DNA from: Candidatus Woesearchaeota archaeon
GTDB taxonomy: Archaea; Nanobdellota; Nanobdellia; SCGC-AAA011-G17; UBA489
DNA length: 64,000 bases
Assembly (NCBI GenBank): GCA_964343875.1
Contig: CAYFJW010000001.1
Span: forward strand, 9,696-73,695
Direction of reading: 5' to 3'
The position numbers and the translations under genes are program-made. Of this stretch, positions 34,783-59,322 are shown piece by piece. Numbering within the stretch: position 1 is the first letter of the stretch; each line of letters starts with the position of its first letter. The notes under the pieces were generated by a model. That model did not search any database. It saw nothing but the letters and a program-made list of their open reading frames with translations, and was not told the origin of the DNA.

Positions 34783-34897
34783 GAGCCCGTAGCTTAGTCT
34801 GGTTAGAGCGCCAGTCTTATATGACGCTTCTTCGCTTAGAAGAAGATATAAGCTCTAAGAAAGCTGGAGGTCGGGAGTTCAAATCTCCTCGGGCTCA
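34783..34897 (+). tRNA. tRNA-Ile(UAU) with a 40-nt canonical 37/38 BHB intron (34822..34861)
   Basis: Acceptor GAGCCCG/CGGGCTC + A73 and a D arm almost identical to tRNA-Ile(GAU) at 61357. Anticodon stem CCAGT/GCTGG, loop CTTATA|A, anticodon TAT at 34818-34820. BHB: central helix CTTA (34816-19)/TAAG (34856-59), bulges TAT (34820-22) and AAA (34860-62). T arm GGGAG-TTCAAAT-CTCCT. Confidence 0.8.
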
Positions 34898-36118: not shown

Positions 36119-36484
36119 TTATTTATCCCTTATTTCTTTCCATTTAACTTTCTTAGAATCAACTAAATCTTTTATCCTTCTCTGTTTCTTAGATAAATTT
36201 GAACTTCCTGTTTTAAATTCAACAAACACAATTTCATCATCCTCAAAACTTAATCCATCTATAGGCGATCCAATAAATCTAAAATTATTCACATCATAAG
36301 GATATGAACTCATAAAGGGAAATAACTGCTCAAAAGATTTCCCGTGCTTCACAACATTGGACTTATGAGAAAATCTCAACTCTTCATGCAATCCTCCTAA
36401 CACTCTGAGCTCATTATTCTTCAACCAAAGGAGCACAAATAATATCAAAATTACACCAATCAAAACTAACGTTAAAACATCCAT
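36119..36484 (-). CDS. Membrane-anchored endonuclease related to archaeal Holliday-junction resolvase (PF10107-like)
   Basis: N-terminal TM VLTLVLIGVILILFVLLWL, then FRFIGSPIDGLSFEDDEIVFVEFKTGSSNLSKKQRRIKDLV (D...E-x-K core). Confidence 0.55.
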   Translation of the reverse strand: MDVLTLVLIGVILILFVLLWLKNNELRVLGGLHEELRFSHKSNVVKHGKSFEQLFPFMSSYPYDVNNFRFIGSPIDGLSFEDDEIVFVEFKTGSSNLSKKQRRIKDLVDSKKVKWKEIRDK

Positions 36485-36570
36485 ACAACCCTTATAATCG
36501 CTAAATATAAAAACCTATTCTAAACCCCACCAAAACCTTTAAAAGTCGAAATCCAGCATATACGATACAC

Positions 36571-36675
36571 ATGAAAAGAAGCTCTAAAAGGTGGAAAAAA
36601 AGACACCAAATGCGTTGGAAGTGGCAACGTAAAAAGATGAATAAAGAGAAGAGAAAGCGTAAAGCTAACAAATAG
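36571..36675 (+). CDS. rpl41e: Ribosomal protein L41e (34 aa; absent from the ORF track)
   Basis: Own translation MKRSSKRWKKRHQMRWKWQRKKMNKEKRKRKANK. It contains the KRSS.RWKKK..MRWKW core of archaeal L41e. Confidence 0.75.
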   Translation: MKRSSKRWKKRHQMRWKWQRKKMNKEKRKRKANK

Positions 36676-36689
36676 TTCTACTAGAAATG

Positions 36690-36698
36690 TTTTTAAAG
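36690..36698 (+). promoter_or_regulatory. TATA-like box (TTTTTAAAG) upstream of tRNA-Thr
   Basis: Ends about 24 nt upstream of tRNA position 1 (36722), just after the rpl41e stop. Confidence 0.45.
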
Positions 36699-36757
36699 TA
36701 ACCAGTCGGCACCTAGCTATCGCCACCGTAGCTCAACGGTAGAGCATTTGCCTTGTA

Positions 36758-37201
36758 TGTCCACAAGGGATATAAAAACCATTGTCTTTTTTGACAGATG
36801 GTCTCAGAGAAAAAGAAAATTTCAAGAGAAGCGGAATTACGCTTTGCCTCTGAATTTGTGAAGAAAGGATACGACGTATTCTTTCCGATGTCGGAGTTTG
36901 GAGCTATAGACCTAGCGGTTCACAAAGATGGATGTTTTAAACGTGTCCAAGTGAAAGCTACAAAACCTACTAATGGGGGATTAACTGTTAAGTTGAGATC
37001 TACCAATAACTGGCAGGATAAGAGGTACACTACAAATGACGTTGATGGGATAGCTGCGTATGACTATATGTCTTGTAGAGGATATTTGTTCGACCTCAAA
37101 AAATTTGAAGGCCAATCACAAGTTGTATTAAGGACAAACCCCACAAAGAATAATCAAAAAAAGCTCGTTAACTCCGCATCAAAATTCCTGTGGTTCAAGT
37201 A
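36758..37201 (+). mobile_element. Bulge-helix-bulge tRNA intron (444 nt) carrying an endonuclease ORF
   Basis: hBHBh' fold: anticodon stem, then 3-nt bulge TAA (37200-02). Central helix CTTG (36752-55)/CAAG (37196-99), then 3-nt bulge TAT (36756-58). Inner helix GTCCACA (36759-65)/TGTGGTT (37189-95) with one G-U and one U-U. Cleavage after the second bulge nucleotide on each side gives 36757|36758 and 37201|37202. Confidence 0.75.
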
Positions 37202-37202
37202 A
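36798..37202 (+). CDS. Intron-encoded PD-(D/E)XK endonuclease-like protein (I-Ssp6803I / PDDEXK_5-like), 134 aa
   Basis: REAELRFASEFVKKGYDVFFPMSEFGAIDLAVHKDGCFKRVQVKAT (E...D...QxK core), then NDVDGIAAYD and LRTNPTKNNQ. These match my recollection of the family that includes the cyanobacterial tRNA-intron homing endonuclease. Confidence 0.7.
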   Translation: MVSEKKKISREAELRFASEFVKKGYDVFFPMSEFGAIDLAVHKDGCFKRVQVKATKPTNGGLTVKLRSTNNWQDKRYTTNDVDGIAAYDYMSCRGYLFDLKKFEGQSQVVLRTNPTKNNQKKLVNSASKFLWFK

Positions 37203-37244
37203 GCAAAAGGTTGGGAGTTCAAATCTCTCCGGTGGCTTTTCAAA

Positions 37245-37871
37245 ATGAGAATAGTATTAATCGGCGGACCAGGATCTGGAAAAGGAACTAGAGCCAAACA
37301 TATGGCAAAACACCTTTCCCTCCCACACATAAGCACAGGAGATATTTTTAGACACCACTTAGAGCAAGATACAGAGCATGCAGCCGAAATAAGAAGTTTC
37401 ATAGACTTTGGAAACTTAGTCCCAGATTCTCTTACAATAAAACTACTAAAAAAGAGACTAGCAGAAGACGATTGTCAAAGCGGTTTTATCTTGGATGGCT
37501 TTCCAAGAACAATGGAACAAGCCATGGGCATGGATCTTCCCGAACATGTTTTATTTTTTGATTGCCACGAAGATACTTTAGTTGATCGCCTAGGAAATAG
37601 ACTAAGTTGTAAGGATTGCAAACAGATCTACAATCTAAAAGGACAAAAACCAAAAGTCGAAAACAAATGCGATCACTGTGAAGGCGATTTAATACAAAGG
37701 GAAGATGACAAGGAAGAAGTTATTAGAGACCGATTAAAAGTTTACAAAAAACAAACAGAACCAGTTTTAGATTTCTTTGGAGAAAAAGTAACTAAATTTG
37801 ACACAGGAAAGGAAGTTGAAGAATCTGTAGAAGAAATATTGGCATTCTTAAGAAAAGAGCCCGTGGTCTAG
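37245..37871 (+). CDS. adk: Adenylate kinase (long, zinc-lid type)
   Basis: P-loop GGPGSGKGT, ISTGDIFR, GFILDGFPRT, lid CKDCKQIYN...CDHCEG. Starts 8 nt after tRNA-Thr. The last 4 codons plus stop lie inside tRNA-Val. Confidence 0.9.
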   Translation: MRIVLIGGPGSGKGTRAKHMAKHLSLPHISTGDIFRHHLEQDTEHAAEIRSFIDFGNLVPDSLTIKLLKKRLAEDDCQSGFILDGFPRTMEQAMGMDLPEHVLFFDCHEDTLVDRLGNRLSCKDCKQIYNLKGQKPKVENKCDHCEGDLIQREDDKEEVIRDRLKVYKKQTEPVLDFFGEKVTKFDTGKEVEESVEEILAFLRKEPVV

Positions 37872-46264: not shown

Positions 46265-47077
46265 ATGAAAATATTAAAACAAACTTTCAAAGTATACAAA
46301 AAAAGTTTCTTCACACTAGCATTTGCCCAATTAATGCTATTTTTCTCATCACTCTTCTTCTTAATTTTCGTAAAATGGAAGCTAACAGATTACCTCAGAA
46401 AGTTACAAGAATTCCAACCACAATTGCAACAAGTCTTAAACACCGTAGATGTTAACAACCCAGCAACGATTGATAACTCATTAACAGTAATTGAAGCATT
46501 AAACAGAGTTACAAATGAAGCAACACTATTTGCATATGTTCTTGTCCCATTAGTATTACTAATAATCTGGATTGCATTCCAAGGATTATTTTGGGGAACA
46601 ATAAAGAAACAAAAAATAAAACCAATAAAAAACTACTTAGTAAGACTTGCAATTCCATCAGTATTTATCTTGATTATATTCTCACAAATTGCATTCCCCA
46701 GACAGATAACAGACTTCTTTAACACTTTTGATGATAGCATCTTCAGAATAATAATCTCTGCATTCATAGGTCTCTACTTACTAACAATGTATTACATAAT
46801 CTTAGATAACCAAACACTAGCAAAAGCACTCAAACAAACATATAACTTGGCAATAAAGAAATTCTACAGATTCATACCATTGTATCTCCCTTCATTCCTA
46901 CTTACAACAATTCTATTTTGGTTAATGGCGATTGCATTGACACAAGAATACACAGGAACAACAGTTTATGCCTCATCCATAGAATTAATAATCATAAGTT
47001 TGATAACTTTAATTCTAGCAATGTTCTATAAAGTATTCCTACAAAACTTAGTTAACAAAGAAAAAGTGTGGGAGTAA
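46265..47077 (+). CDS. Polytopic membrane protein, last gene of the surface-protein operon
   Basis: Six or more hydrophobic helices. ATG at 46265 is 2 nt after the giant ORF stop. Its own stop overlaps the 3' end of tRNA-Leu on the opposite strand. Confidence 0.55.
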   Translation: MKILKQTFKVYKKSFFTLAFAQLMLFFSSLFFLIFVKWKLTDYLRKLQEFQPQLQQVLNTVDVNNPATIDNSLTVIEALNRVTNEATLFAYVLVPLVLLIIWIAFQGLFWGTIKKQKIKPIKNYLVRLAIPSVFILIIFSQIAFPRQITDFFNTFDDSIFRIIISAFIGLYLLTMYYIILDNQTLAKALKQTYNLAIKKFYRFIPLYLPSFLLTTILFWLMAIALTQEYTGTTVYASSIELIIISLITLILAMFYKVFLQNLVNKEKVWE

Positions 47078-47174
47078 GGATTCGAACCTTAGTAGGCACT
47101 AAGCCACTGGGTTTCTTAGGTTTTTGTTCTTAACCTCCTAAGCCCAGTCCATTTGACCGCTCTGGCACTCCCAC
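47067..47174 (-). tRNA. tRNA-Leu(UAG), class II, with a 24-nt canonical 37/38 BHB intron (47113..47136)
   Basis: Minus strand: acceptor GTGGGAG/CTCCCAC + A73, anticodon stem CTGGG/CCCAG, loop CTTAGG|A. Long variable arm TGGCTTAGTGCCTAC, T arm TAAGG-TTCGAAT-CCTTA. BHB: central CTTA/TAAG, bulges GGA and AAA, inner helix GGTT/AACC. Confidence 0.85.
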
Positions 47175-58791: not shown

Positions 58792-59322
58792 ATGGCAGCT
58801 AAGAAAACCTTCCAAGCAAATTTTGTTGGAGAAGGAGTAACGGCGGAGGATGGACCCAAACCTAGAGAACTCTATGACAAAAGCAGATTTGGAGAATTGG
58901 TTTCGGGCAAATTCAAATATTCATTATCAGAAGCACTCTTCTTACTTGAAAACAAAAAGATAGAAGTCCTAGACAGAAACAAAACACTAACAAAGGAAGA
59001 TTTCTTAAAAAAAGCAAGAAAGCTAGACAAGAACTTCTGGGTTAAATATGTAGTATTTTCTAACCTCAGAACTAAGGGCTACATTGTAAAAACAGCACTA
59101 AAATTCGGAGCGGACTTCAGAGTATATGATAAAGGAATCAAACCAGGACAAGACCACGCAAAATGGATTGTTTTCCCAGTACATGAATCAAACACATTAA
59201 CATGGCATGACTTCTCAGCCAAAAACAGAGTATCACATTCAACCAGAAAGAACCTTTTAATTGCAGTGGTAGACGAAGAAGATGACGTCACATACTACGA
59301 AATCGCTTGGAAAAAGCCATAA
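58792..59322 (+). CDS. endA: tRNA-splicing endonuclease EndA, short (176 aa) single-unit type
   Basis: LSEALFLLENKKIEV, YVVFSNLRTKGYIVKTALKFGADFRVY, HAKWIVFPV (catalytic Y/H/K context). The size matches homotetrameric alpha4 enzymes. Confidence 0.9.
   Translation: MAAKKTFQANFVGEGVTAEDGPKPRELYDKSRFGELVSGKFKYSLSEALFLLENKKIEVLDRNKTLTKEDFLKKARKLDKNFWVKYVVFSNLRTKGYIVKTALKFGADFRVYDKGIKPGQDHAKWIVFPVHESNTLTWHDFSAKNRVSHSTRKNLLIAVVDEEDDVTYYEIAWKKP

Follow-up and report, generated by a model that had tools for sequence, protein, structure and literature searches.

How can an open reading frame (ORF) be expressed from an intron whose excision destroys its stop codon? This question is raised by the tRNA-Thr(UGU) gene of a Candidatus Woesearchaeota archaeon (NCBI GenBank assembly GCA_964343875.1), which was analysed within a stretch of 64,000 nucleotides (contig CAYFJW010000001.1, positions 9,696 to 73,695 of the forward strand), hereafter the window. 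The gene carries a 444-nt bulge-helix-bulge (BHB) intron, and the 134-aa ORF inside this intron ends with a UAA that is itself the 3' bulge of the splice motif. An earlier note on this DNA had concluded that either the unspliced pre-tRNA or a circularised form of the intron must be translated. The structural basis of that dichotomy held, but the dichotomy itself proved incomplete and fitted the comparative data poorly. Our preferred reading, which we consider moderately probable, is that of a mobile BHB intron whose endonuclease gene is leaderless and transcribed independently, the 3' end of this gene doubling as splice motif. Demonstrated in this work were the anatomy of the locus and the conservation of this anatomy, the family to which the protein belongs and the existence of intronless alleles.

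The host genome comprises 746 kb in 9 contigs and is 96% complete, and the nearest named relatives of the locus were found in Woesearchaeota/Nanoarchaeota (DPANN) assemblies. With introns allowed, ARAGORN placed tRNA-Thr(tgt) at 36722-37237 of the window with a 444-nt intron. The default ARAGORN scan and Rfam at the gathering threshold did not call this gene, because the intron is long, and it is the single copy of tRNA-Thr(UGU) in the genome. When the whole pre-tRNA was folded, the minimum free energy (MFE) and centroid structures alike gave a cloverleaf with a canonical hBHBh' motif. The parts of the locus are the following, a slash marking the predicted cut:

36722 to 36757, + strand: 5' exon, tRNA-Thr(UGU) positions 1-37 (ARAGORN with introns; alignment to the intronless orthologues of congeners)
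36747-36751 with 37203-37207, + strand: anticodon stem, 5 bp (pre-tRNA fold)
36752-36755 (CUUG, tRNA positions 32-35) with 37196-37199 (CAAG), + strand: central BHB helix, 4 bp (pre-tRNA fold)
36756 to 36758, + strand: 5' bulge UA/U, cut predicted between 36757 and 36758
36758 to 37201, + strand: BHB intron, 444 nt, at the canonical position 37/38 (ARAGORN; exactly this stretch is absent in the congener G219)
36759-36768 with 37187-37195, + strand: outer helix h', about 9 bp, its 3' strand consisting of ORF codons (pre-tRNA fold)
36798 to 37202, + strand: 134-aa ORF, TAA at 37200-37202, its last 7 codons forming the 3' strands of h' and of the central helix
37200 to 37202, + strand: 3' bulge UA/A, the ORF stop codon UAA, cut predicted between 37201 and 37202; A37202 is tRNA position 38
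37202 to 37237, + strand: 3' exon of tRNA-Thr(UGU), followed by TTTT (ARAGORN; alignment to intronless orthologues)

Two opposed 3-nt bulges were thus found with a 4-bp helix between them and with the anticodon stem and the outer helix on their flanks, which is the hBHBh' arrangement. Removal of the intron restored a normal tRNA with a 7-nt anticodon loop in the ARAGORN cloverleaf of the spliced form, and the spliced tRNA-Thr aligned base for base to the orthologues that lack the intron in six congeners. From the DNA alone, the cut could be placed only to within 3 nt, since the 5' exon and the intron both have GTA as their last bases; whichever register applies, the circle is identical and the linear intron has no complete stop. 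The possibility of a split tRNA, joined in trans, was also considered and was dropped as unnecessary, because the 444-nt intron lies in cis, the BHB is perfect and the intronless orthologues are precise.

The exact coincidence of the UAA at 37200-37202 with the 3' bulge, proposed in the earlier note, was confirmed by the ORF coordinates and by the pre-tRNA fold. The central-helix strand CAAG is encoded by the ORF codons TTC AAG, and the ORF fills 91% of the intron. The deduction that the excised linear intron ends in ...UA without a stop, and that only an RNA containing nucleotide 38 carries one, likewise stood.

Whether homologous introns of other genomes keep this overlap had been left as a check by the earlier note. 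Genomic contexts were retrieved for 24 distinct homologues of the Pfam family PF11645, six of them intron-borne and 18 free-standing. The six intron-borne homologues, with 45-75% amino acid identity, were all located in tRNA-Thr(UGU) at position 37/38:

window: intron of 444 nt, 3' bulge TA/A
loci L027-29: intron of 443 nt, 3' bulge TA/A
loci L030-32: intron of 459 nt, 3' bulge TG/A
locus L002: intron of 453 nt, 3' bulge TG/A
loci L015/16: intron of 441 nt, 3' bulge TA/A
loci L034-36: intron of 413 nt, 3' bulge TA/A

The overlap was kept in six of six. All six ORFs end with TTC AAG T(A/G)A, in which CAAG pairs with CUUG, and the first 10-12 bases of each intron are complementary to the last ORF codons, the sequences differing between lineages. 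In the protein tree the six intronic members and one free-standing member formed one clade (support 100/98), and therefore the arrangement was acquired once in the PF11645 family and was kept through deep divergence, including a switch between TAA and TGA.

A second case was found in the same genome, outside the window:

G000:C2:103769-104297 (L039:1001-1529): tRNA-Ala(UGC) with a 454-nt BHB intron

The ORF of this intron (138-140 aa) is unrelated to the endonuclease of the tRNA-Thr intron and carries the motif CxxC...CH...H...CxxCH...H, on which its description as HNH-like rests. No significant Pfam family was found for it, and Foldseek against the PDB returned weak matches only (E of at least 0.09), mostly to HNH nucleases. 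It ends with TTC AAG TG/A, the stop lying in the 3' bulge, and its AUG is likewise placed in a hairpin. Among its relatives in assemblies labelled Aenigmarchaeota, L040 showed the same stop placement in the 3' bulge; in L042, where the tRNA has U32, the frame was shifted by one base and the stop U/AG lay across the cut. Hence, in two unrelated ORF families, all nine intron-borne loci have an ORF that terminates across the 3' splice site, and judged by this comparison the overlap of stop and splice site is more than chance.

The 134-aa ORF matched PF11645 (PDDEXK_5) with 64.6 bits against a cut-off of 26.1, and 126 of the 134 residues were covered. A profile built from 23 homologues matched PDB entry 2OST, the endonuclease I-Ssp6803I, with ...D-L...VQVK aligned. 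The AlphaFold model of the ORF reached a predicted local distance difference test (pLDDT) value of 90.9, and in Foldseek its top four matches were chains of 2OST (template modelling scores 0.68-0.77), followed by SPARDA nuclease domains and the archaeal Hjc resolvase. About 30 alignment columns were invariant, among them several glutamates and D38, Q51 and K53, which align to ...DL...VQVK of 2OST. For the ORF and its closest relative dN/dS was 0.07, for another pair it was 0.16, and full length was kept in all relatives. From the Pfam match, the profile and fold matches to 2OST, the invariant residues and dN/dS, we conclude that by sequence and model the ORF is an intact, selected PD-(D/E)XK homing endonuclease of the I-Ssp6803I family. 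Cleavage of intronless tRNA-Thr(UGU) genes and homing would be the activities predicted for it.

Homing endonuclease genes often decay after fixation, and the ORF might accordingly be a silent or decaying passenger, in which case the overlap would be an accident of deletion-driven shrinkage and no route of expression would be needed. The degenerate look of the promoter in the tRNA-Ala intron would suit such a fate. But dN/dS of 0.07-0.16, the invariant columns with D38, Q51 and K53 and the retained full length all speak for selection, and the absence of the intron from the congeners suggests a recent gain, so that a passenger appears very improbable.

The distribution of the ORF was sporadic: among 240 genomes of the order it was present in three, and it was absent from all eight congeners, six of which have an intronless tRNA-Thr(UGU) at the syntenic site (order tRNA-Ser, tRNA-Glu ... 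tRNA-Thr, [adk], tRNA-Val). In the congener G219 the flanks were 85-87% identical, and the BLAST gap (query 659-1108) corresponded to the intron within a few unaligned flank bases. Sporadic distribution together with precise empty sites, the signature of homing, was thus observed. In DNA contigs from four runs, two of which may be the source of the assembly, no joint, intronless allele or variant was seen at 36300-37700.

In the protein tree the free-standing relatives made up the sister clade of the intronic clade, apart from the one free-standing member inside the latter. Ten of them lie upstream of a tRNA-Thr(UGU), mostly by about 35-40 nt and in one instance by about 100 nt, and the tRNA-Thr(UGU) beside these ten contains a short, ORF-less intron of 14-38 nt at 37/38. 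Six others are found just downstream of tRNA-Thr(UGU).

Orphan tRNA 3' fragments, consisting of the T-loop and the acceptor strand, were observed directly after the stops of free-standing endonuclease genes (L003:1900-1930; L004 and L013:1900-1925; L043:1217-1240), in L003 beside a complete upstream tRNA-Thr(UGU); they fit 'cut and replace' cassettes. The contig of L003 (JAFCCB010000019.1), with its archaeal-type endonuclease gene next to tRNA-Thr(UGU), is labelled Candidatus Dojkabacteria, of the candidate phyla radiation (CPR), and is probably a mis-binned DPANN contig. A free-standing form of the HNH-like ORF (L043/44) is also flanked by tRNA pieces, and the tRNA-Ala(UGC) at L040:880-1520, which was not callable by ARAGORN, seems to hold further inserts, for example in the T-arm.

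Given an intact endonuclease, the route of its expression was examined through the signals of the host. Across the genome, A/T-only hexamers containing TA showed a sharp peak at -29/-28 from the ATG. About half of the ORFs of at least 150 aa have such a hexamer within -31 to -26, with an A-rich transcription factor B recognition element (BRE) before it; this peak with its BRE is, as read from sequence, the signature of leaderless mRNAs. The remaining half or so showed Shine-Dalgarno (SD)-like motifs at -13 to -10. A regular-expression search for the 16S rRNA 3' end, meant to define the anti-SD, gave no match. At the tRNA-Thr locus the following signals were predicted:

36690 to 36698, + strand: TATA-like box of the presumed own promoter of tRNA-Thr, about 25-30 nt before the mature 5' end
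36763 to 36779, + strand: candidate intron-internal BRE/TATA ACAAGGGATATAAAAAC, TATA at 36770-36778 (genome-derived position weight matrix, PWM)
36778 to 36802, + strand: predicted AUG hairpin, in which the AUG at 36798-36800 pairs with 36780-36782 (MFE and centroid of the whole precursor, local folds)

The spacing of the tRNA-Thr box agrees with the genome-wide distance from TATA to start. The intron BRE/TATA scored 6.7 bits, which places it at percentile 99.6 among random positions and at percentile 73 among real ORF upstream regions, so a candidate promoter was found inside the intron at about the usual distance of the host from a start codon. No SD motif was found upstream of the intron ORF. 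Most of the 24 homologues, free-standing as well as intronic, have a BRE/TATA of 5-10 bits within about 4 nt of the same spacing, as do two of three intronic HNH-like ORFs; in the sub-lineage of L030, L002 and L033 it lies 13-14 nt farther upstream and is followed by an SD-like leader.

Most free-standing PF11645 genes (L003-L024) also share an element AGACC(N2-3)CCTCTTAGTA between TATA and ATG, about 10-25 nt upstream of the latter. It is conserved beyond what a plain spacer would suggest and might be an operator, by analogy to I-TevI autorepression. Its resemblance to the anticodon-arm target in tRNA-Thr was tried as well and was unconvincing, only TAAG being common by eye.

The 5' arm of the hairpin is situated downstream of the TATA box and upstream of the predicted start of transcription. 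AUG pairing was compared in a uniform fold window of -27..+30, with 272 leaderless-type genes as controls. The probability that the AUG is paired with its upstream partner was 0.87 in the window, compared to a control median of 0.09. A probability of at least 0.6 was obtained for five of nine intronic loci, with differing sequences, for 8.8% of the 272 controls and for two of 18 free-standing homologues.

These data bear on both routes of the earlier note. According to the first, the unspliced pre-tRNA would be the mRNA: a ribosome on the last seven codons would melt the BHB, making translation and splicing mutually exclusive for each molecule, and a stop in the bulge would let the BHB refold once the ribosome departs. 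For this route it can be said that the stop is present only where nucleotide 38 is, that the ORF's 3' terminus is the 3' strand of the BHB and that the overlap recurs in two ORF families. In phage T4, moreover, translation of an intron ORF on the precursor interferes with splicing (PMC2988022). But the AUG lies 76 nt from the 5' end and has no SD, though the genome uses SD for non-leaderless genes, and it is predicted to be paired on the pre-tRNA; a splicing block of the single-copy tRNA-Thr(UGU) would also be costly. Translation of the pre-tRNA is therefore regarded as unlikely.

In the second route the intron circularised by RtcB would be an archaeal circular mRNA, whose stop, split by splicing, would be restored at the junction (five of nine loci) or replaced some codons later, and the output of endonuclease would depend on splicing. 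The arithmetic given for the window was correct: the junction reads UAU and is followed by 12 codons (YVHKGYKNHCLF), the UGA at 36792-36794, CAG and the ATG, so that 146 codons, a stop and 3 nt make up the 444 nt and the product would have 146 aa. As a general property, the "99% coding circle" did not survive comparison and is peculiar to this window. Between the window and its closest relative, L027 (443 nt), the tail differs by a 1-nt indel (GGG vs GG), and read-through in L027 gives a different 10-residue peptide and a different stop, so the tail is not conserved as coding. Intron lengths modulo 3 vary as well (0, 2, 0, 0, 0, 2 for the Thr introns and 1, 0, 1 for the Ala introns), and not all are multiples of three.

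In favour of the circle, tRNA introns excised at BHB motifs are circular in the archaea examined (PMC12558985), and RtcB is encoded in the genome, on contig C3 (PF01139, 565 bits). The first intron base is A in four of seven ORF-bearing lineages, compared to none of ten short ORF-less tRNA-Thr introns beside free-standing relatives, which hinted that this base is selected to regenerate a stop. The hint was rejected as evidence because the counts are low and come from related lineages, and because the A is part of a run of A residues pairing with UUUUU in Phe-Phe codons, a structural confound. The junction regenerates a stop (UGA or UAA, with A as the first intron base) in five of nine loci, and the junction of the window reads UAU. 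An SD that would serve internal initiation is absent, and in the circle the AUG hairpin is predicted to stay intact, with the same pairing probability of 0.87. Neither a conserved junction-dependent frame or stop nor, by prediction, an accessible internal initiation signal was found, and a translated circle seems slightly less likely still than a translated pre-tRNA. Translation of the circle would make it a rare natural circular mRNA in archaea, one that would have arisen in two nuclease families, with synthesis of the endonuclease licensed by successful splicing of an essential tRNA.

The favoured reading, an independently transcribed leaderless gene, needs neither of these messengers. The enzyme expected to cut the two bulges, as judged by its domain, is encoded in the window:

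59035 to 59295 (G000:C1:68730-68990), + strand: catalytic domain of the tRNA splicing endonuclease EndA, in an open frame of 182 aa (PF01974, 104 bits)

In this model a complete cassette of promoter, leaderless ORF and stop would be squeezed between the two strands of the tRNA-Thr splice motif. The 40-nt leader would consist only of the 5' strand of the outer helix, the BRE/TATA box and a spacer, and the last seven codons would supply both helices, outer and central, with their 3' strands. The two free bulge bases and A38 of the tRNA would make up the stop, at the last site at which a stop could stand without a change in the exon. Two RNAs are proposed. The first would start from the tRNA promoter and yield the pre-tRNA, in which the AUG would be buried in the hairpin and the BHB would form; EndA would be expected to cut both bulges, destroying the stop, and RtcB would join the exons and probably circularise the intron, the circle being an untranslated by-product. 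The second would start from the intron promoter at or next to the AUG. This leaderless mRNA would lack the 5' arm of the hairpin and the 5' half of the BHB, and since it would form neither structure, it could be translated, could not be cut by EndA and would retain its UAA. The AUG would thus be buried in every RNA that contains the leader, namely the pre-tRNA, the linear intron and the circle. The enzyme of 134 aa would in turn cleave tRNA-Thr(UGU) genes that lack the intron, close to the anticodon loop, leading to homing. Given this third route and the T4 precedent, we infer that the stop in the bulge is an end-point of compaction and not a device for translation of the circle.

Several points weigh against this model. 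Measured from the ATG, the intron TATA falls 2 nt short of the modal distance, and a start shifted by the same 2 nt would fall inside the ATG. Promoter scores were weak elsewhere, with 0.9 bits for the tRNA-Ala intron ORF, 3.2 bits for L015 and none for L034, and TATA-like words arise easily in A/T-rich leaders. Strong AUG pairing was lacking in four of the nine intronic loci when the uniform fold window was used. The internal promoter, the transcription start and the hairpin are themselves predicted features, and the independent origins of the overlap are, by the relationships of the ORFs, two families and not nine loci.

The closest known counterpart of the enzyme is I-Ssp6803I, a PD-(D/E)XK homing endonuclease from the group I intron of tRNA-fMet in Synechocystis PCC 6803 (PDB 2OST; PMC3384342; Bonocora and Shub 2001, as cited in PMC3984707). 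The two proteins have in common the family PF11645, the fold (template modelling score 0.76) and the D...QxK motif, with 134 aa here and 151 aa in I-Ssp6803I, and both are encoded in an intron of a tRNA anticodon loop. In contrast to the self-splicing group I ribozyme, the intron described here is an archaeal BHB intron spliced by proteins, its host is tRNA-Thr(UGU), and its ORF fills 91% of it and overlaps the splice motif. The PF11645/I-Ssp6803I family has been described as generally cyanobacterial (PMC3384342). In our searches of the literature we came upon no paper that describes a tRNA BHB intron with an ORF, archaeal members of PF11645 or a stop codon overlapping a bulge.

BHB introns that bear homing endonucleases are known from archaeal rRNA genes, and the origin and movement of tRNA BHB introns are still debated. 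The rRNA introns carry LAGLIDADG enzymes such as I-DmoI and I-PorI and those of the 16S introns of Thermoproteales (PMC4496867), and they form stable circles (Dalgaard and Garrett 1992, as cited in PMC4238349). They resemble the present locus in the combination of a BHB intron with a homing endonuclease ORF, in cutting by EndA and ligation, and in their patchy distribution. Differently from them, the present intron interrupts a tRNA, its nuclease belongs to the PD-(D/E)XK type (HNH-like in tRNA-Ala), and the stop is the 3' bulge. At this locus an intact endonuclease, from a family described until now as cyanobacterial and group-I-borne, is found in a BHB intron of a tRNA.

For expression, the nearest parallel is phage T4 td/I-TevI. 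The intron endonuclease genes of T4 have their own promoters inside the intron, and the late transcripts do not include the sequence by which the start site is sequestered; the ORF's 3' terminus also takes part in the splicing structure, and splicing is impaired when the precursor is translated (PMC2988022). An internal promoter, a hairpin on the long transcript only and an ORF 3' end within the splicing structure are thus common to both. T4 is a bacterial phage with a ribozyme intron in which the SD is sequestered, as has been shown experimentally, whereas here an archaeal, leaderless mRNA, sequestration of the AUG itself and a BHB recognised by proteins are all predicted. Judging by the predicted promoter and AUG hairpin, archaea may have arrived at the solution of T4 for keeping ribosomes off a splicing substrate, and the overlap of stop and splice site shows to what extent an ORF and a splice motif can merge.

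In collaborative homing, a free-standing endonuclease beside an ORF-less intron at its target has been proposed as a route to mobile introns (PMC3984707, PMC6083498). The ten free-standing relatives beside a tRNA-Thr(UGU) with a short ORF-less 37/38 intron recall this arrangement, but the introns here are BHB and not group I introns, and intronic and free-standing forms belong mostly to separate clades. With intronless sister alleles, free-standing relatives and a second nuclease intron in tRNA-Ala, both the mobility and the birth of a mobile BHB intron become testable at the bench.

Two further tRNA genes of the window contain short introns at or near 37/38, namely tRNA-Ser(UGA) at 34783-34897 (40 nt) and tRNA-Leu(UAA) at 47066-47174 (24 nt). 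Downstream of the tRNA-Thr gene, an adenylate kinase ORF begins 8 nt past the 3' end of the tRNA (37237-37247), and its last 15 nt overlap tRNA-Val (37857-37871). It has no TATA of its own (PWM score -3.2 bits), its -28 region being the T-loop of the tRNA, and it may be co-transcribed with tRNA-Thr or with the endonuclease mRNA. The same junction of tRNA-Thr and adenylate kinase was found in the congener G219.

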